64,000 nt of DNA from Candidatus Latescibacterota bacterium (GCA_965261395.1 OZ253462.1:4032001-4096000); one strand, 5' to 3'; shown: positions 1,821-9,990, numbered from the stretch's first letter. Notes: a model not told the origin generated them from the sequence alone. Numbers and translations are program-made.

Positions 1821-3971
1821 ATGAAGCAGCAATGGCGGGAACGACTGGGGACGGTGACGCTGGAACCCTGCGCGCCGGTGGTGGCCGGCAGCTATCAGCA
1901 ATGGACTTTGACCCTGACGGTGGGCAGCTACGGCATTGACGAGCGCGGCACCATTAAGATCGCCCAGCGCTTTGCCTGCGATATGCAGCCAGCCCAATTC
2001 AGCGATCCAGCCGCGCCGGCTTATTGCACGGTGCAGACTAACGGGGCGGCCAAGCTGGTGCCGCGCTTTGCTCCCAAAGGGCACGAGCGGCCGTGGATGC
2101 GCTGGTGCGTGGTGATTGATGTGTACGACGGCTCCCTCGCGCCCGGCGATACGGTGACCGTGGTCTTGGGCGAGCGCAGCGGCGGCTCGCCGGGGATTCG
2201 GGTGCAGACCTTTGTTGAGTCAGCCCACGAATTCCGCGTTTTCGTCGATCCGACCAATGCTGCGGTGGCTCGGGCCGTGGCGGATTCGCCCAAGTTTTCC
2301 ATTGTTGCGGGCGAGGCTGTGGAATTGGTGTGCATAGCGCCGAGCCAGGCAGTGGTAGGGGAGGCGGTGGAGGTTTTTGTCAAAGGGCAGGATATGTGGG
2401 GCAATCCGACAGAAGTGACAGGTCCGGTTGAACTGGATTGGGAAGGGGAAGGGGAGATCGTGGTCGAGGGGTGCAGGGTGTCCTTTTGCGCTTCGGGCAG
2501 TGGATGGCTGATTGCGGTGGCGGACGGCTTGCGCTGTTACAGTAATCCAGTCGCCGTTTCTGCGACAGCGATTCAGTGGCACCGCTACTGGGGGGATTTG
2601 CACGCCCAGTCCGACGCTACCGTCGGCGTGGGCACGGAGGAGGAGTACTTCGCCTTTGCCCGCGACTGGGCGAGGGTGGATTTTGCCTCGCATCAGGGCA
2701 ATGATTTCCAGGTTGACGACCAGGACTGGCAGCGGCTCAACGAGACGGTGCGGGCTTTTCACCGGGACGGCGAGTTTGTCGTCTTTCCTGGCTACGAGTG
2801 GTCGGCCAATTCTCCGGCCGGCGGGGACCGCAACGTCTTTTACTTTGCCGAAGGGCTGCCCATTGTGCGCAATAGCCACTGGCAGATCCCGCACGTGCCC
2901 GAGGACGAGGTGTCGCCCGCGCATCCGGCCGATGTGTTCTTCGCCCGGCTCGCTCGCTTGGTGCCACGCGATCAAGTGATTATCGGCTCGCACGTGGGCG
3001 GGCGCTGGGCCGACGTCAAGGCGTATTTCGATCCCGAGGCGCACAATCTGGTGGAGGTCGTCTCGGGCTGGGGCGTGTTCGAGTGGATGCTGTTCGACGC
3101 GCTGGACTGCGGCCACGTGGTCGGGGTCATGTGCAACAGCGACGGCCACAAAGGGCGGCCTGGGGCTGAGGGGCCGGGCGCTGGCGAGTTTGGTATTGCC
3201 GGCGGTTTGACCTGCGTGTTGGCTGGCGAGTTGTCGCGCGCGGGCGTGTGGGAGGCTTTATGTAGTCGGCGCTGTTATGGTACGACCGGCGCGCGCATAC
3301 TTCTAGATGTACAGATAGCGGGTGCGCTCATGGGGGCGGTGGTGAAAGATGTGAACTCGGTGGATATTCGCGCCCGGGTTGTGGGGGCGGTACCGCTGGA
3401 GGCGCTGCAAGTGTATCGCGGTCGGACATTACTCGCTGAGGTCCAGCCGCCTGAATTCCGGGATTTGGGGCATTCCAACAGGTTGCGCCTGACGTGGTCT
3501 GGCTCGCGGATGCGCGGGCGCGGGCGGCGGGTGGATTGGTCTGGGGTTATCCGCACCACCGAGGCGACCATCGTGGAGGCGACCACGGTCAGCTTTGACT
3601 CTGCGGCCGACGGCATCACCGCGACCGAGCCGCAGGCCGTGGCTTTTCAATCGCAGACAACAGGAGATTGCGACGGCATTGAGTTGGTGCTGGACGATGG
3701 GCGGGTTGGCCGCTTGGTGTTCGACTCTGCGGCGGGGACGACGGAGATTGATCTGGCGGGGCTGAGCCACGAGCCGTTGCGCTTCGATTACGGCGGCTTG
3801 GATATGCAGTTGGTGGTGCAGCGCTATCCCGAGCGGGTGGAAGCGCTGGAATTGACGTTGGAGACTGTGGATCAGCCGTCGGGGGAGGGGCAGGTGGCTT
3901 ATTTCGTCAAGGCCATTCAGTGCGACGGGGAGATGGCTTGGTCGAGTCCGGTGTATGTATCCCTGAAATAA
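1821..3971 (+). CDS. DUF3604-like PHP-fold metal-dependent hydrolase
   Basis: YWGDLHAQS, FPGYEWS, GDRNV, SDGHKGRPG, RRCYGTTG and C-terminal AWSSPV motifs. Confidence 0.8.
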   Translation: MKQQWRERLGTVTLEPCAPVVAGSYQQWTLTLTVGSYGIDERGTIKIAQRFACDMQPAQFSDPAAPAYCTVQTNGAAKLVPRFAPKGHERPWMRWCVVIDVYDGSLAPGDTVTVVLGERSGGSPGIRVQTFVESAHEFRVFVDPTNAAVARAVADSPKFSIVAGEAVELVCIAPSQAVVGEAVEVFVKGQDMWGNPTEVTGPVELDWEGEGEIVVEGCRVSFCASGSGWLIAVADGLRCYSNPVAVSATAIQWHRYWGDLHAQSDATVGVGTEEEYFAFARDWARVDFASHQGNDFQVDDQDWQRLNETVRAFHRDGEFVVFPGYEWSANSPAGGDRNVFYFAEGLPIVRNSHWQIPHVPEDEVSPAHPADVFFARLARLVPRDQVIIGSHVGGRWADVKAYFDPEAHNLVEVVSGWGVFEWMLFDALDCGHVVGVMCNSDGHKGRPGAEGPGAGEFGIAGGLTCVLAGELSRAGVWEALCSRRCYGTTGARILLDVQIAGALMGAVVKDVNSVDIRARVVGAVPLEALQVYRGRTLLAEVQPPEFRDLGHSNRLRLTWSGSRMRGRGRRVDWSGVIRTTEATIVEATTVSFDSAADGITATEPQAVAFQSQTTGDCDGIELVLDDGRVGRLVFDSAAGTTEIDLAGLSHEPLRFDYGGLDMQLVVQRYPERVEALELTLETVDQPSGEGQVAYFVKAIQCDGEMAWSSPVYVSLK

Positions 3972-4067
3972 TGCCAATAAGAGAATTCGTTGGTCTCGCC
4001 GCAGATCGGTTTGAGTTGGCATCTATCGTTCTCCGTCTTGCTTTCACCGAGCCTTAGCCCAGCGGGG

Positions 4068-4625
4068 TCAACGTGCTCGCTCCCGGGCAATCTGCCTGCC
4101 TGCGCCCGTCACGTTTTGACGGTACCGAACGAGATCTACGCTTGCCAAAAAATGGTTGGCAATCTGTTCCTTGGGCATTCCACGGCGTAATGCCCAAAGC
4201 AGACCCTCTCGCGTTATCTGAAGGCAGCCCCCCATGTAGCGCGCCTCTTCTTCCTGCTCGTTGTCATAGCTTCTGAGAGACCCGTTTATCCCTGAGTTGG
4301 CAGCCGGATGTTTGCAGATGATGTGGGCGATCTCATGCATAATATCGCTTTCCTGTCGCGGCCTTGAATGAGTCGAATTGTGGACAATGAATACTCGATC
4401 CTGTTCAGGGATCACCACAGCTCCAGCCGACCACTTTGAGTCGCGATTCGACAACCATCCGGAATGCAATGGATCTAGACCTGGTATTTCATCAGGAGTC
4501 ATTACGTGAATACCAAGGTGCTCAGCAAGGGATTTGGCTGGAAGCGGCTGACTGTCACAGATAGCGAGCGCTTGACGGTAGTCCCGAGCCTGCTGTTCCG
4601 CTTGTGTCTTGAATCCTCGCTTCAT
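4068..4625 (-). CDS. capP: ImmA/IrrE-family Zn metallopeptidase (CapP-like)
   Basis: HEIAH (HExxH) motif preceded by RQES and followed by EEEA; co-oriented 8 bp downstream of an XRE regulator. Confidence 0.85.
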   Translation of the reverse strand: MKRGFKTQAEQQARDYRQALAICDSQPLPAKSLAEHLGIHVMTPDEIPGLDPLHSGWLSNRDSKWSAGAVVIPEQDRVFIVHNSTHSRPRQESDIMHEIAHIICKHPAANSGINGSLRSYDNEQEEEARYMGGCLQITREGLLWALRRGMPKEQIANHFLASVDLVRYRQNVTGAGRQIARERAR

Positions 4626-4633
4626 GGAATGCC

Positions 4634-4996
4634 CTATATCTCACCCCGTTTGCCCGCGTCATAGAGCGCTCGGAACGCCGCCGACAGCGCTTGGACGGTC
4701 TTGGGCGGAAGTTCACGATCTGCGCGCAGATGCGCCTCAACTACGTCGGGCGTGCTGACGGCCCTCGCTGAAGGGGTTACATCGGCGATTCCTTCCGTAA
4801 ACTCATCAGGTGAAAACCCAAGCCATTGACAAAGGCGAAGAAACGAAGCCAGATCCGGGAGCCTACCCGCCTCAACTCGCGACAATGTGGAAGCGCTAAT
4901 GCCCCCGATTTCTTTTGCTGTCTCCCGTAAGCCCTTATTTTCTCTCTTCTTACGGATTTCAACGGCCAACTTTCTCACGTCGATGGTCTCGGTCAT
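4634..4996 (-). CDS. capH: XRE-family HTH repressor (CapH-like)
   Basis: LRETAKEIGGISASTLSRVEAGRLPDL helix-turn-helix plus a C-terminal AHLRAD..L oligomerisation-like segment; divergent from the Ubl operon. Confidence 0.8.
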   Translation of the reverse strand: MTETIDVRKLAVEIRKKRENKGLRETAKEIGGISASTLSRVEAGRLPDLASFLRLCQWLGFSPDEFTEGIADVTPSARAVSTPDVVEAHLRADRELPPKTVQALSAAFRALYDAGKRGEI

Positions 4997-5064
4997 CGCT
5001 AGCCTCCTCCTGTTTCTTTGTCTTCAAGATAATCAAATAGTCTCATCCGCGAAACAAAAACCAC

Positions 5065-5125
5065 TTGTGCAACGATATTGAAGTTGCTATATTCCCTCTT
5101 GCGACGCGTTGCATGTGTGCAACGA
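5065..5125 (+). promoter_or_regulatory. Sigma70-type promoter and candidate CapH operator sites
   Basis: TTGTGC (5065-70), 17 bp spacer, TGc-TATATT (extended -10, 5088-93). Palindrome CGTTGCA-N4-TGCAACG at 5107-5124. TGTGCAACGA occurs at both 5066 and 5116. Confidence 0.65.
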
Positions 5126-5154
5126 CACCTACTCCTTCGGAGGAATAAGAGATC

Positions 5155-5343
5155 ATGCCCAAGGTATTCAAGCCAGGACAGGACGCACCGGCATCAGGTC
5201 AATACGAGGAAATCGGACCTCGTGATGGAAAAACAGGCCATGAGGTGACATCCAACAAGGGACAGCCATTGCCACCGACTCGGGGACCGGGGCGGAGCTA
5301 CATCCTTGTAGACCGGAGTCGAAACAAGTCTGGGAGGGGATGA
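5155..5343 (+). CDS. YjzC-family small protein
   Basis: KPGQDAPASGQYEEIGPRDG...GQPLPPT signature; GGAGG RBS upstream. Confidence 0.8.
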   Translation: MPKVFKPGQDAPASGQYEEIGPRDGKTGHEVTSNKGQPLPPTRGPGRSYILVDRSRNKSGRG

Positions 5344-5393
5344 TTCCAGCGCATTCTTAAGGGGAGCCTATTCATATTCATAAGGAGAGACAA

Positions 5394-5927
5394 ATGGATA
5401 CTGCTATCGACAAACAAAATTTCGCGGACGAAATCGTGGATATTGAGATTTTCACGGCTGAGGGCAGGAAAGTTCCCGACTACTGTAAAGGCTACCTGAT
5501 CCGCATAAATGAGCAGAAGTATATCGTGGAGAAACCTACGGTGACTCGTGAGGAGGTAGTACGAATTGCCAAGTTTGATCCATCTGAGGATGCCTGTGTC
5601 CGCGTCTACATACATGGATCGAGGCCCCGAGTGCTCCAGCCGGGCGAAGAGGTTGACCTGACCTTACCGGGCATTGAGCACTTCCAAGTAGACAAGGAGT
5701 GCATCGTCAAGGTGAAGGTGAACACCACGACCTTTGAACTCGCAGTCCCGACGACCGGTAAGAAGGTAAAGCAGGCCGCTATTGAAGCTGGCGCGAAAAT
5801 TGAGCTTGACTTCGTTCTCTACTTGGAGCTCAAGGACGGGCCGCCGGAGCAGATTGATGACGACGAGGTAGTGTTCTTAGATGAGGGTGCCTGTTTCAAC
5901 GCTGTGTCGGGCGACGACAATTCCTAG
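5394..5927 (+). CDS. Multi-ubiquitin-domain protein (two beta-grasp domains; BubA-like Ubl)
   Basis: Two repeats of the pattern [IV]x[IV]N...T[RG]xx[VI]...E.V.L..G..F; C-terminus SGDDNS; directly upstream of E2 and E1 genes; AGGAG RBS. Confidence 0.8.
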   Translation: MDTAIDKQNFADEIVDIEIFTAEGRKVPDYCKGYLIRINEQKYIVEKPTVTREEVVRIAKFDPSEDACVRVYIHGSRPRVLQPGEEVDLTLPGIEHFQVDKECIVKVKVNTTTFELAVPTTGKKVKQAAIEAGAKIELDFVLYLELKDGPPEQIDDDEVVFLDEGACFNAVSGDDNS

Positions 5928-5930
5928 ACG

Positions 5931-6338
5931 ATGGCACTCAAACCCGCAGTTGAAGAGGCCATCAAGGACCTACAAAAAGCCTTCCCGGAGTCTGTTGTTA
6001 GTCCTACTGAAGATGGTCAAGGCGGAGCCCACATAGTGATCGAACCAGTACCGCTCGATACCCAAGTCTTCGTCCACAGCGAGACTTGGGGCGGATTCGA
6101 CCTGAGCTTCAACCTCCCGTATGCCGATGTCTATCCGATTTACGTCCGGTCGGACCTCGCCCGGCGCGATGGTCGGGAACTCAGGGATACAAGCGAAGGC
6201 TTGCACCCCGACCAGAGTTTCCAAGGCCGCTCCGCCTTGATGCTTTCCCGTCGCTCGAACAACCGCGATCCTGAGCACGACAAGCCCCACTTGAAGGTGC
6301 TCAGGGTTCTCGAATGGCTAAGGAGGTGGCCGGGGTGA
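5931..6338 (+). CDS. Prokaryotic E2-like protein (BubB-like), no cysteine
   Basis: UBC-like pattern F.L...LPYADVYP.YV followed by LSRRS; sits between the Ubl and E1 genes; the 135-aa product has no Cys. Confidence 0.7.
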   Translation: MALKPAVEEAIKDLQKAFPESVVSPTEDGQGGAHIVIEPVPLDTQVFVHSETWGGFDLSFNLPYADVYPIYVRSDLARRDGRELRDTSEGLHPDQSFQGRSALMLSRRSNNRDPEHDKPHLKVLRVLEWLRRWPG

Positions 6339-7765
6339 CCGATTTCGACCTGATTCTGCCGGCAAAACTCAAGAGCGACCTCTTTGCTCATCTCTTTCCC
6401 GGAGATGGCGACGAACATGGGGCCATAATCTCTGCCGGTGTCGTACATACTGATAGGGGCCTTCGACTTCTAGCTCGGGATCTGTTCTTGGCCGAAGACG
6501 GGGTCGATTACATTCCCGGAGAGCGTGGCTATCGAATGCTCACACCACGCTTTGTGATGGAAAAATCCCTCAATTGTCGGGACCAGAAGCTAGCATACTT
6601 GGCTATACATAATCATGGCGAAGGGGAGTCCGTCAGTTTTAGCGATGTGGACCTTGCTTCGCACGAACGTGGGTACCCCGCTCTGGTGGACATCTTGCAG
6701 GGACAGCCCGTTGGAGCCCTCGTTTTCGCTAGATATGCGGTCGCTGGAGATCTCTGGCTTCCAAGTGGTGGGCGTACCACGCTGCGAGAGGGTAGAGTTG
6801 TAGGAGGCTCCATCGAGTGCTTATATCCAAACCCGCCGCCGGCTCCTCCAAGTGTAGATTTGACCTATGATCGGCAGGCACGGCTCTTCGGTGACCGAGG
6901 GCAATCGCTCCTCAATGACGCAAAGATAGGAATCATCGGTGCTGGAGGCGTGGGGGCTCTCCTAGTGCTCTATATGGCCCGTCTCGGGGTAGGCCACATG
7001 GTCGTTGTGGATCCAGACCGCATCGACATCACCAATCTTTCTAGAGTCCCTGGTGCTACGCGCTTCGATGCAAGGACTTGGCTCACCGCAGGGGGGCGGC
7101 CTGAGTGGCTCCAAAGCTTCGGGCGTCGAATCTCTGCCCGCAAGGTGGACATTATGCGGCGTGTTGCCCGCCGAGCCAACCGGGATATTTGGTTTGAGGG
7201 CATCTTCGGAGATGTCGTGGATGACGCCGTAGCGATGCGGTTTAGAGACTGCGATTTCCTATTTCTGGCTGCGGATACCCACCAAGCAAGGCTCGTCTTT
7301 AACGCGCTCGTTCACCAGTACCTCATTCCTGGTGTTCAGGTTGGCTCCAAAATCTCTGTCGATAGGGCCTCTGGCGAGATTAATGACGTGTTTTCGGTCG
7401 TGCGTCCAGTCATTCCAGATTCTGGATGCCTTTGGTGCGCGAAGCTCATAGATCCGGCCCGTTTGGCGGAGGAATCGCAGCCAAAAGAGGAACGAGAGCG
7501 TCAGAGTTACATTGAGGAAGTTCCTGCACCGAGCGTAGTGACGCTGAATGGTATCGGTGCGAGCCATGCTGCCAATGAGTTTCTTTTTTCTTGGACTGGA
7601 CTTAGGCTTCCGGTCTCTGAGGAACTGTACCTATACTACCAGCCACGGGAGCGAAAGGGAATGATGCCAAAACCTTTACGTAAGGATGCCTGCACAGAGT
7701 GTGGGATAGGAACGGAAAGCCGACGGGCACGTGGCGACAGCACAGATCTACCGACACGGTGGTAG
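6335..7765 (+). CDS. JAB/MPN peptidase - ThiF/E1 adenylyltransferase fusion (BubCD-like)
   Basis: N-terminal E...HNH-x8-SDVD JAMM motif; YDRQ, GAGGVG, DPDRIDITNLSR, AAD, and Zn pairs CLWC and CTEC. The GTG start overlaps the E2 stop (GTGA) and has an AGGAGG RBS. Confidence 0.9.
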   Translation: MTDFDLILPAKLKSDLFAHLFPGDGDEHGAIISAGVVHTDRGLRLLARDLFLAEDGVDYIPGERGYRMLTPRFVMEKSLNCRDQKLAYLAIHNHGEGESVSFSDVDLASHERGYPALVDILQGQPVGALVFARYAVAGDLWLPSGGRTTLREGRVVGGSIECLYPNPPPAPPSVDLTYDRQARLFGDRGQSLLNDAKIGIIGAGGVGALLVLYMARLGVGHMVVVDPDRIDITNLSRVPGATRFDARTWLTAGGRPEWLQSFGRRISARKVDIMRRVARRANRDIWFEGIFGDVVDDAVAMRFRDCDFLFLAADTHQARLVFNALVHQYLIPGVQVGSKISVDRASGEINDVFSVVRPVIPDSGCLWCAKLIDPARLAEESQPKEERERQSYIEEVPAPSVVTLNGIGASHAANEFLFSWTGLRLPVSEELYLYYQPRERKGMMPKPLRKDACTECGIGTESRRARGDSTDLPTRW

Positions 7766-7891
7766 GTGCTGAGAAATACGAGCCGATCAAGGATGAGATC
7801 AACTCAATTATAACTGACCTAGCCGTAGCTTGACTGACCAAAGTTCTTCGATTACATACAATAACAGTCGCGGTGAGAAAGGACGGCAACC

Positions 7892-8440
7892 ATGGTCATC
7901 CCCAATCCCATAGTCAAGTTTACCTACGAAGACTACCTGAATACGCCGGAAGATAAGCGCTACGAGCTCCTAGACGGAGAGTTGGTTATGACCCCTGCCC
8001 CCGGAGAACTTCATCAGAGCATTTCCATCCTGCTAGGATCGGAACTGTTTCAATTCGCATCTGAGAATAGCTTGGGGCGGGTCTATCAGGCTCCCTTCGA
8101 CGTGGTGCTATCGGATGTGGACGTGGTGCAGCCTGATCTACTGTTCGTCTCCAATGAGCGCGGCCACATCATCACTCCCGCGAACATTCAGGGCACGCCG
8201 GACTTGGTCGTCGAAATCCTATCCCCCTCCACAGCCGAACGCGATAAGACATTCAAGCGCACGCTATATGCCAAGCACGGCGTGAACGAATACTGGATGG
8301 TGGACACTACCGAAAAAGACATAACAGTCCTGCTACTCGGTGAGCGCGGATACGAGGTCGTGGATACCTACGTCGAAGGAGAGACATTGACTTCGCCGAC
8401 CTTGCAAGGCTTCAGGCTGCATATCGGCGACCTATTTTGA
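7892..8440 (+). CDS. Uma2 (DUF820) family PD-(D/E)XK endonuclease
   Basis: YELLDGEL, VQPDLLFV, PDLVVEILSPST..RD...K...YA..GV.EYW.VD. Confidence 0.92.
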   Translation: MVIPNPIVKFTYEDYLNTPEDKRYELLDGELVMTPAPGELHQSISILLGSELFQFASENSLGRVYQAPFDVVLSDVDVVQPDLLFVSNERGHIITPANIQGTPDLVVEILSPSTAERDKTFKRTLYAKHGVNEYWMVDTTEKDITVLLLGERGYEVVDTYVEGETLTSPTLQGFRLHIGDLF

Positions 8441-8462
8441 GCGCCTCAGGCTGGAGGTTACA

Positions 8463-8699
8463 ATGCCAAGGGTCAGCAGCATCCAAGGGCCATATCGGTT
8501 CTTCTTTTACAGCTTTGACTGTCATGAACCTCGGCATGTGCATGTCAGAAGAGAAAAAAGAACATGCAAATACTGGCTTGAACCCATTGCATTGTGCAAA
8601 AATTACGGATTCTCTCCCCATGAACTGAATGGAATTCGGCGGTTGATCCAATCGAACTACGTGATAATTTTGGAGGCTTGGCGTGAACACTGTGAATAA
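8463..8699 (+). CDS. DUF4160 family protein (putative toxin-antitoxin component)
   Basis: YRFFFYSFDCHEPRHVHV motif; overlaps the DUF2442 gene. Confidence 0.85.
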   Translation: MPRVSSIQGPYRFFFYSFDCHEPRHVHVRREKRTCKYWLEPIALCKNYGFSPHELNGIRRLIQSNYVIILEAWREHCE

Positions 8700-8949
8700 T
8701 ACGGAACCTCGCATCAAATCCATCAGGATTACTGAGGACTTGATCATCGCTGACTTGTTCGACGGTCGAACAATCAGTGTGCCACTCGTTTGGTCTTGGC
8801 GACTTTCCGATGCAACACCCGCTCAGCGTGAAAACTATGAATTTATCGGCGATGGGCAGGGCGTTCACTGGCCGGATATCGATGAAGACATCAGTGCAGA
8901 AGGCATGTTGATGGGCACACCTGCACAGCCCGCTAAACAGCGTGTGTAA
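8683..8949 (+). CDS. DUF2442 family protein (putative toxin-antitoxin component)
   Basis: DGRTISVPL.W..RL..AT..QR...GVHWPDIDEDIS signature. Confidence 0.88.
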   Translation: MNTVNNTEPRIKSIRITEDLIIADLFDGRTISVPLVWSWRLSDATPAQRENYEFIGDGQGVHWPDIDEDISAEGMLMGTPAQPAKQRV

Positions 8950-8991
8950 CTCAATCTGTAGCGGGGCTGGTGCTGGTCAGCGAAAGTAATC

Positions 8992-9990
8992 CTACAACTC
9001 CACCCGCCTCCCACTGCGGGCCGACTCAAAAGCCGCCTCGACCACTCTGAGCGTGCCGTCGGCATGGTCGGCCATATAGGCGGGAGTCTCTTCTCCGCGC
9101 AGACATTGCTGGAAAAAGTCAATGGCCGGCTGGAAAGGCGGCGTGCCGGTCTGGAAGGTCTCGCTGCGGTTCTCATTGGAGCCGCTGACCACGTCAAAAC
9201 TGCTCTCCGCGCCGGGATGGTACGGGGAGGGTACAACCAGTCGGCCTTGGTCTCCAGTGATGAGGGCATGAGGCCCGCCGCGACCATCGAAACCGCAGTA
9301 CAAGGTTGCGGTGAGGCCGTCGGGGTATTCGAGGATGAGCGAGGTGGCCACGTCCACCCCGGCTTGCGCGTCAAAGCGCATGTGCGCCTGAACGCTAACC
9401 GGGTCGGTGCCAGCGATGAAGCGCGAAAAGGTGATGGGGTACGCGCCGCCGTCGTAAATGCTGCCGCCGCCCAACGCTTTAATCAGGCGGATGTTGCTGG
9501 GGTCGTCGATGAAGTAGGTCATGCCGGCGTTAATGTGGCGCAGGGTGCCGATTTTGCCGGCGGCGATGATTTCCTTGAGACGGCGGCTTTGGGGATGGTG
9601 CATGAAGACAAAGGCCTCAAAGAGCAGCACGTCGGCCTTGTGGCAAGCCTCGACCATTTGCCGGCCTTCGGCCGCGGTGACGGCGAGGGGTTTTTCGCAA
9701 AAGACGTGTTTGCCGGCCTCGGCGGCTTTGATGGTCCATTCGGCGTGCAGCGAATTGGGCAGCGAGATATAGACGGCGTCGATGTTCGGGTGGTCGAGCA
9801 GGGCTTGGTAACTGCCCAGCGCCACAGGGATATCGTGGTCGCGGGCAAAGGCATCGGCGGTGTCTTGGCTGCGGCTGGCCACGGCATAGACTTGGGCACC
9901 GGGCGTGGCGCGGGCCGAGGGAATGAAGGCGGTGACGCCGATTCTGGCGGTGCTGAGGATGCCCCATTGGATGGGTCGTGAACTGGTCAT
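8992..9990 (-). CDS. Gfo/Idh/MocA oxidoreductase
   Basis: WGILSTARI, AGKHVFCEKP, GGGSIYD.G.Y. Confidence 0.92.
   Translation of the reverse strand: MTSSRPIQWGILSTARIGVTAFIPSARATPGAQVYAVASRSQDTADAFARDHDIPVALGSYQALLDHPNIDAVYISLPNSLHAEWTIKAAEAGKHVFCEKPLAVTAAEGRQMVEACHKADVLLFEAFVFMHHPQSRRLKEIIAAGKIGTLRHINAGMTYFIDDPSNIRLIKALGGGSIYDGGAYPITFSRFIAGTDPVSVQAHMRFDAQAGVDVATSLILEYPDGLTATLYCGFDGRGGPHALITGDQGRLVVPSPYHPGAESSFDVVSGSNENRSETFQTGTPPFQPAIDFFQQCLRGEETPAYMADHADGTLRVVEAAFESARSGRRVEL

Follow-up and report, generated by a model that had tools for sequence, protein, structure and literature searches.

A probable Bub-type (6e) conjugation cassette without BubE next to a separable regulator module in a Candidatus Latescibacterota genome

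The genome sequence of Candidatus Latescibacterota bacterium (GCA_965261395.1) was found to carry, at positions 4068-7765 of a stretch of 64,000 nt (OZ253462.1:4032001-4096000; the whole of this stretch is referred to as the window), two open reading frames (ORFs) divergent from four others, and these six raise the question of whether they make up a self-sufficient protein conjugation system and, if so, of which kind. An earlier note had read them as a CapP/CapH-controlled operon for YjzC, a ubiquitin-like protein (Ubl), an E2 (conjugating enzyme) and a fusion of a JAB peptidase with an E1 (activating enzyme). All six ORFs were found at the coordinates given there, and the low GC content of the region was likewise confirmed, being 0.48-0.59 over approximately 4000-9000 and 0.61-0.66 in both flanks. 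The answer proposed here, with good though not full confidence that extends to the mechanism set out below, is that window positions 5394-7765 are a three-gene Bub-type (6e) conjugation cassette under the control of a regulator module separable from it.

Gene sets of this sort were described in 2006 as row 6e, comprising a polyUbl, a Cys-less E2-like protein, a JAB-E1 fusion and a metal-binding protein Y (Iyer et al., PMC1779556); in the wording of that paper the operons include "usually two or three genes" besides the E1, and a Ubl-E2 fusion occurs only "in some species". The preprint of Ye et al. (bioRxiv 2024.11.21.623953) divides them into Type I Bub, with a Ubl-E2 fusion, a JAB-E1 fusion and the DUF6527 protein BubE, and Type II Bub, with a Ubl, an E2-E1 fusion and BubE in the absence of a JAB domain, the latter type conjugating in vitro. 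According to the same preprint, Bub conjugation proceeds via a Tyr of the E1 and a Ser of the E2 in an oxyester relay, a double mutant of the catalytic Ser of BubB and its partner His has no activity, bubE is present in all Bub operons, and CapH and CapP accompany 168 of 544 operons.

Proteins of the cassette

A one-genome-per-species scan gave 334 relatives of the E1, and the best 80 of these 334 loci (the 80 related loci) were used for comparison. The E1 gene (6314..7765, plus strand) overlaps the E2 gene by 25 nt and is predicted to encode a 483 aa BubCD-like protein that matches ThiF (expectation value, E, 1.1e-27). Its JAB domain was not detected by Pfam. In a sequence search of the PDB the closest solved relative was Citrobacter BubCD (9ea4_A, E 2.6e-22), to which the JAB and E1 domains were matched separately, and the JAMM peptidase-E1 fusion postulated earlier was thereby confirmed. 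The Glu, His-x-His and Asp residues of the JAB domain align with those of the BubCD peptidase domain, and Tyr399, in the crossover loop, aligns with the loop Tyr that is numbered Y370 in the BubCD paper. In an alignment of the window protein with 80 relatives (81 sequences), the JAB residues H99, H101, S110 and D113 were invariant and E34 was present in 79 sequences, while the adenylation (ATP-site) residues and Y399 were found in all 81. The crossover segment, residues 377-411, had no Cys in 80 of them. Thus, a JAB domain fused N-terminally to an E1 adenylation domain of the homodimer type, and a Cys-less crossover loop with an invariant Tyr, are both shared with Type I Bub (6e.1), from which the protein is set apart by the modest E value of its match to BubCD. 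Among the NCBIfam models only sub-threshold ThiF/MoeB matches were obtained with the window proteins, PADLOC recognised no system among them, and its Cap2-type "E1-E2" models matched the E1 solely at the nucleotide-binding loop.

The E2 gene (5931..6338, plus strand) begins 3 nt after the Ubl gene and encodes a 135 aa BubB-like protein of the Prok-E2_E clade in which no Cys is present. A fold model built by AlphaFold2 with 57 relatives had a predicted local distance difference test score (pLDDT) of 92.4, and its nearest solved fold in Foldseek was Citrobacter BubB (9eae_C, E 3.6e-4, template modelling (TM) scores 0.65/0.68), followed by eukaryotic E2s with E values of 0.1 and above. The UBC fold on which the earlier note had made its reading of this ORF depend is therefore predicted by the model. 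When a profile of the E2 clade was compared with the PDB, BubB was the sole match (E 0.7), the Ser-Arg motifs aligning with a shift of one residue.

Conservation was counted over 77 E2 sequences. P63, Y68 and P69 were found in all of them, S106, R107 and K122 in 76 each, and D66 in 74; the last may, judged by position only, correspond to the Asp that accompanies the catalytic Ser of BubB. The residue following Ser106-Arg107 is Arg108 in the window protein, and this position is occupied by Arg in 69 sequences and by His in none. Forty of the 77 proteins are wholly Cys-free. Pfam family Prok-E2_E (PF14462) was matched by 29 of 57 E2s of the clade, the window protein not being one of them. A wider search among 1.84 billion representatives gave 323 clusters (50% identity) with the E2 profile, and in the best 150 of these the E2 was mostly free-standing. 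A UBC-fold E2 without Cys and with an invariant Ser, here in an invariant Ser-Arg pair, is again a feature of Type I Bub.

The first gene of the cassette (5394..5927, plus strand) is predicted to encode a BubA-like Ubl modifier of 177 aa, which matches Multi_ubiq (E 8.1e-18) in two stretches and ends in DDNS. Its AlphaFold2 model (pLDDT 87.2) displays an N-terminal helix and two beta-grasp domains, so that the second fold on which the earlier reading hung is also predicted. The best Foldseek matches were multi-ubiquitin proteins of E. coli ZDHYS365 and Citrobacter, a BilA, di-ubiquitin and ISG15, and residues 155-229 of BubA superposed on the model with a TM score of 0.84 and a root-mean-square deviation of 1.4 Å.

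The position of DDNS relative to the stop codon was nearly constant. The stop codon follows directly after DDNS in 65 of 76 Ubls and after variants differing in one residue in 8; the remaining 3 extend for 2-6 residues. The residue preceding the motif is variable (G, P, D, N, A, H, T or V). Nine natural Ubl-E2 fusions were found in the E2 clade, among the best 150 of the 323 clusters, and in these the motif was kept at the junction, as DDNS in 7 of the 9, and was followed by a variable linker. The Type II Ubl of E. coli ZDHYS365 ends in Asp-x-Ser (last residue, chain 9cd2_A), and so does the Type II Ubl of the genome studied here. As DDNS is found both at the stop codon and at fusion junctions, and Ser-ended Type II Ubls are conjugated in systems without JAB, it seems likely that the mature end of the modifier is the Ser of DDNS. 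In this respect the protein resembles Type II Bub (6e.2), where the Ubl is encoded by a separate gene, ends in Asp-x-Ser and is presumably used unprocessed.

The three longer Ubls belong to loci L034, L035 and L039, where the reading frame extends 2-6 codons past DDNS/DDDS and overlaps the E2 start by 4 nt. In these naturally occurring proteins the residues that follow the Ser would have to be trimmed off. A read-through product or a broken Ubl-E2 fusion was also considered for the window, as suggested by the shared frame of the two genes with TAG-ACG-ATG between them, and was rejected because the same frame was found in just 20 of 76 related loci, the gaps ranging from -4 to +20 nt.

A clade of operons without BubE

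Relatives of the cassette are numerous: of the 8,000 candidates scored for the E1 family, 3,628 had an E value no higher than 1e-10. The 334 relatives of the one-genome-per-species scan were spread over Actinomycetota, Chloroflexota, Acidobacteriota, Pseudomonadota, cyanobacteria and others, and the E1s of the clade are 44-84% identical to that of the window in the best segment. A separate Ubl gene, a separate gene for an E2 of 125-140 aa and a JAB-E1 gene were present in 76 of the 80 related loci, the other 4 ending at a contig edge.

BubE was searched for with a local profile made from 13 BubE sequences, in all six frames of the 80 related loci and the window, together with two positive controls. 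The profile matched both positive controls only, and no BubE/DUF6527 gene was detected in the window or within 5 kb in any of the 80 loci. In a whole-genome search of 34 host genomes, DUF6527 was found in none of 26, and the copies in the other 8 were on a different contig or separated from the locus by 27 kb or more. The DUF6527/BubE serine protease gene of the Bub operons is thus missing here and throughout the clade; since BubE is part of the published definition of Bub, the system is not complete by that definition, and the earlier claim of completeness is to be corrected to that extent. Its companion claim, that the operon includes no recognisable effector, E3 (ligase) or target gene, was borne out, and the lack of an E3 or effector gene is shared with Type I Bub.

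Two other operons served to place the clade. Locus L103, from the same phylum, is a canonical Type I operon in which BubE is present, the E2 has a Ser-Arg-His motif identical to that of BubB, and the Ubl ends in Gly. As these three features go together in L103, Arg108 and DDNS appear to mark the clade that lacks BubE. The second operon, which is of canonical Type II, lies in the same genome as the window about 270 kb away (approximately 3,762,700-3,764,700; L006 6744-8672). Its Ubl (Multi_ubiq, 106 aa) has Asp-Gln-Ser at the end, its E2 and E1 are fused as DUF6791-ThiF, and its BubE (DUF6527, E 2.6e-25) is the single strong DUF6527 protein of this genome. No similarity was found between the E2-clade profile and the E2 domain of this Type II fusion.

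Compared with the known types, the cassette therefore differs from Type I Bub in having no BubE, in a Ubl that is encoded separately and ends in DDNS at the stop codon instead of in a Gly exposed by JAB cutting of a Ubl-E2 fusion, and in an E2 with Arg in place of the partner His. It differs from Type II Bub, with its DUF6791-ThiF E2-E1 fusion and BubE and its lack of JAB, in the free E2, the JAB-E1 fusion and the absence of BubE. With the 6e operons of 2006 (PF14452, PF14462) it has the polyUbl, the Cys-less E2-like protein and the JAB-E1 fusion in common, protein Y (DUF6527) being absent. Its closest relatives, folds and catalytic residues make the operon a member of the known 6e/Bub superfamily.

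In the literature searched, in which Ye et al. was available as a preprint, no description of a Bub type lacking BubE was found. Table S1 of that preprint comprises, according to its header, DUF6527-containing operons, and the available text of Gong et al. agrees with this. A catalogue built in this way could not include the clade. Such an operon is annotated in RefSeq as a multiubiquitin protein, a hypothetical protein and a ThiF family adenylyltransferase.

Relatives of the E1 were found on 11 plasmid records, 5 of them conjugative, and no match was obtained in phage records at E 1e-10. Genes beside the related loci often encode toxin-antitoxin or abortive infection (Abi) proteins, an integrase or a transposase. 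In 13 loci from several phyla (L064, L067, L068, L072, L073, L075, L077, L078, L080, L081, L083, L085 and L086; approximately 6400-8010, minus strand) the E1 gene faces a conserved, convergent ORF that matches no Pfam family, is about 525 aa long and overlaps the E1 stop by some 4 nt. This ORF may be another component of the system in that sub-clade, or a gene that travels along with it.

The regulator module and its genomic slot

Upstream of the cassette, the two genes on the minus strand encode an M78 (ImmA/IrrE-family) zinc metallopeptidase of 185 aa with an HExxH motif (4068..4625; Pfam Peptidase_M78, E 8.1e-13, residues 35-169) and a 120 aa XRE-family repressor (4634..4996) with a helix-turn-helix domain (HTH_3, E 7.8e-9, residues 14-66) and a C-terminal tail of about 50 aa. 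A divergent XRE repressor and HExxH M78 peptidase next to an operon are also the arrangement of CapH/CapP, DdrO/IrrE and ImmR/ImmA, and the Bub-type Ubl, E2 and JAB-E1 operon divergent from such a pair that the earlier note described was indeed found. Such neighbours are frequent in Type I Bub as well: pairs of XRE and COG2856 proteins were reported next to 70% of PF14452 genes in the part of Kopfmann et al. (2016) consulted, and the preprint of Lau et al. (2022, bioRxiv 2022.04.27.489752) places CapH/CapP beside 6e operons. With the window regulators as queries, similar peptidases were detected in 37 of the 80 related loci and similar repressors in 52. In PDB sequence searches the peptidase had no match and the repressor had weak matches only. 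The CapP/CapH label itself stood in part, namely for the divergent HExxH peptidase and XRE repressor; it did not stand as to the proteins named, for reasons given below.

Between the divergent genes lies a candidate promoter/operator region (4997..5154). The 9-mer GTGCAACGA has two copies in the 64-kb window, at 5067 and 5117, both within this region, where TGCAAC/GTTGCA hexamers were observed 3 times and 0.05 were expected. The palindrome GTTGCA-N4-TGCAAC is located at 5108-5123, and the orthologous region of locus L096 retains its half-sites. These repeats are putative operators.

The gene that follows (5155..5343, plus strand) has a GGAGGA motif 9 nt 5' of its ATG and encodes a 62 aa protein of the YjzC family (PF14168; 30.2 bits, cut-off 25); 29 of the 30 matches in an Atlas search with it were YjzC clusters. 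It is separated from the Ubl gene by 50 nt, and had been read as a member of the conjugation operon. This was not borne out, and YjzC was rejected as a conserved fourth operon gene, because it was found in none of the 80 related loci, even at phmmer E 50, and because it occurs with the regulator pair where Ubl, E2 and E1 are missing. Sampling of 401 genomes from the phylum of genome G199 gave no YjzC, but in the phylum to which the window belongs 9 of 168 genomes had the gene. In five loci, the window included, YjzC is divergent from an XRE and M78 pair, and in two more an M78 gene is nearby. YjzC is followed by a Ubl gene and a Prok-E2_E gene in three loci, again counting the window, and in L103 these are followed by JAB-ThiF and BubE. 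In three loci it is followed by an 86 aa ORF without Pfam match (L099 7221-7481, L100 5209-5469 and L101 6654-6914), together with a pair of XRE and 280-286 aa M78 genes. At L098 6714-7133 it is fused to DUF2188, a family that the preprint of Lau et al. (2022) lists as CapH/CapP cargo.

The two parts of the locus have different closest relatives. In locus L096, which belongs to a different genus of the family, the regulator pair and YjzC are 90% identical in DNA to window positions 4000-5360, and no Ubl, E2 or E1 gene comes after them, the similarity stopping about 17 nt past the YjzC stop codon. The closest relative of the cassette, L008 (E1 84% identical), matches the window in DNA only over 5409-7758, with 79% identity. 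The boundaries of these two matches indicate that the unit consists of a regulator and YjzC module joined to a three-gene conjugation cassette. At L008 4083-4620 the Ubl frame is split into two overlapping ORFs, by a frameshift or an assembly error.

The surroundings of the unit were compared with those in congeners. The left flank (window 2500-3958) is kept at about 90% identity in at least 20 of 30 congeners, and the right flank in many. Among the matches listed, none covered window 3959-7874, save for one YjzC copy located elsewhere in one genome, and of the 31 genomes of the genus 1 had the cassette. The slot so defined (approximately 3972-8990) lies between a DUF3604 gene and a gene for a Gfo/Idh/MocA-type oxidoreductase, and the distance between the flanks varies from about 1.4 to 19 kb in congeners.

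Five fillings of this slot in congeners (L115-L119) were examined. Two include Type I restriction-modification (RM) systems, one BilABCD and a GajB-like helicase, and one a cyclic oligonucleotide-based anti-phage signalling system (CBASS) with CapH/CapP, while the fifth encodes a large protein weakly matching PADLOC DUF4297 and a PDC-M41 candidate-system gene. In L115 (6837-10716), one of the two with Type I RM, a canonical CapH/CapP pair is divergent from a different Ubl/E2/JAB-E1 operon, which encodes a 241 aa Ubl ending in Arg-Gly, a 131 aa Cys-free E2-like protein and a 457 aa JAB-E1 that is 26% identical to that of the window. A Uma2 (PDC-S03) gene is recurrent at the right edge of the slot. 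In the window itself, the still low-GC segment 3' of the E1 gene (7892-8949) carries, besides an overlapping DUF4160/DUF2442 pair, a gene resembling those for Uma2 endonucleases (PADLOC PDC-S03, 1.9e-41), and a promoter-like site at 7834-7862 suggests that Uma2 is transcribed separately.

The presence of RM, Bil and CBASS in the same slot of sister genomes is positional evidence that favours a role in defence. Like the Bil system that occupies this slot in a congener, the cassette has Ubl, E2, E1 and JAB components in the absence of an E3; unlike Bil, which has a separate JAB, a tandem-adenylation E1 with a Cys domain and thioester chemistry, it has a fused JAB, a single adenylation domain and a Cys-less E2. 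PADLOC Bil models did not match the window proteins, and the operon of the congener scored 3e-167 to 2e-53. The unit appears to be foreign, horizontally acquired DNA in a defence hotspot.

Proposed mechanism, rival readings and meaning

In the mechanism proposed, the E1 domain would adenylate the C-terminal carboxylate of the Ubl, which would be the Ser of DDNS formed directly by the stop codon. The Ubl would then be passed as an oxyester to Tyr399 of the crossover loop, from there to Ser106 of the Cys-free E2, and finally to a Lys of a target protein. In fusions the end of the Ubl is set by JAB cleavage, work that the stop codon would do here; with no fusion to be cut and no BubE, the conserved JAB domain is likely to act as a deconjugating or trimming peptidase. 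The cassette is probably transcribed from the promoter of the regulator module directly upstream, and cleavage of the repressor by the peptidase would raise expression, as with CapH/CapP, where cleavage follows DNA damage or ssDNA. The biological role is most likely anti-phage or stress defence.

Several results weigh against this reading and against parts of it. The 135 aa E2 had no Pfam match even at E 10, and the His that in Type I Bub stands two residues past the catalytic Ser is replaced by Arg108, so that the chemistry may differ from that of BubB. No solved or published case was found of an E1 of the BubE-less clade adenylating a C-terminal Ser. The JAB domain could instead remove DDNS, as the window Ubl has a Gly at position -5. 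As to regulation, a consensus scan of the intergenic region gave no sigma-70-like promoter. The PADLOC capH model did not match the 120 aa repressor, and capP matched the peptidase weakly (20.3 bits, 7.5e-5), over residues 55-128 and profile positions 32-104 of 242, whereas a canonical 297 aa CapP and a CapH of sister genomes gave 4e-61 and 4e-24 on these models, CapP being matched over its full length. With M78 at residues 35-169 of 185 aa, the peptidase has no room for the linker and GAF domain that make CapP a three-domain protein, and it is unlike CapP in being a peptidase only. As to defence, the preprint of Ye et al. states that none of the Bub operons tested gave phage protection.

Three other explanations have to be set against the cassette reading. 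Very improbable is that the proteins do not conjugate at all, as in the 2006 interpretation, where the Cys-less E2-like domain was judged catalytically inactive for want of Cys in the text of PMC1779556. The further PDB matches of the E1 (ThiF, MoeB, TcdA and MccB) and the Asn-Ser end of the Ubl, in place of Gly-Gly, are in line with it. The nearest solved relatives, BubCD and BubB, nevertheless conjugate via Tyr and Ser, both of which are invariant here; no rhodanese domain and no sulfur-metabolism neighbour was seen, and the E1 carries a fused JAB peptidase that is conserved. It is also improbable, though less so, that this is an ordinary Type I Bub operon in which the absence of DUF6527 has no functional meaning because BubE is supplied in trans. 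The distant Type II BubE might act in this way, since a strong DUF6527 gene lies beside Multi_ubiq and DUF6791-ThiF genes on the same chromosome, and Table S1 of Ye et al. includes Type I operons in which Ubl and E2 have a gene each. What speaks against it is the distribution of DUF6527 in the clade, with none in 26 of 34 genomes and distant copies in the rest, and the zero count in the 80 loci, together with the DDNS end of the Ubl in place of Gly and the Ser-Arg-Arg of the E2 in place of Ser-Arg-His.

The remaining explanation bears on role, and is unlikely to a lesser degree than the other two: the operon would serve a general DNA-damage or stress pathway that modifies host proteins and would not be an anti-phage defence. 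An ImmA/IrrE-type pair is in control, as in the Deinococcus DdrO/IrrE damage response; the Bub authors, who saw no phage protection, raise the stress option themselves in their preprint; and YjzC and similar small proteins (DUF2188, YegP) are cargo of such regulators without a known defence role. Against this explanation stand the RM, Bil and CBASS systems in the same slot of congeners, the frequent toxin-antitoxin, Abi, integrase and transposase neighbours of related loci, the occurrence of the cassette, among the matches listed, in 1 of the 31 congeneric genomes, and the location of relatives on plasmids.

The cassette reading can be carried further, to an as yet uncatalogued third Bub type with free Ubl and E2, a JAB-E1 fusion, no BubE, a Ser end at DDNS, a Ser-Arg-Arg E2 and JAB as the sole deconjugase, in which YjzC would be a dedicated cargo of ImmA/IrrE-type damage regulators in this phylum. 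This is put forward tentatively, as a possibility on which we would not yet rely. On that extended reading YjzC, having been recruited repeatedly in front of two different Bub clades, might be a substrate or co-factor of the pathway. The suggestion in the earlier note of a new system or subtype is accordingly to be narrowed: a new system it is not, as the gene set dates from 2006, the biochemistry from 2024 and the link with XRE and M78 from 2016 and 2022, while a new subtype is defensible.

What has been found is a widespread clade without a part so far described as universal, in pathways that are understood less well than any other bacterial ubiquitin-like system. That a large clade of many phyla works without BubE implies that BubE is not essential to the core reaction. 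Taken with the Ser end of the Type II Ubls, the conserved DDNS indicates that Ser is accepted by these E1s at the C-terminus of the modifier, a departure from the Gly rule of Ubls, and the clade offers a natural system for the role of JAB where no fusion needs cutting.

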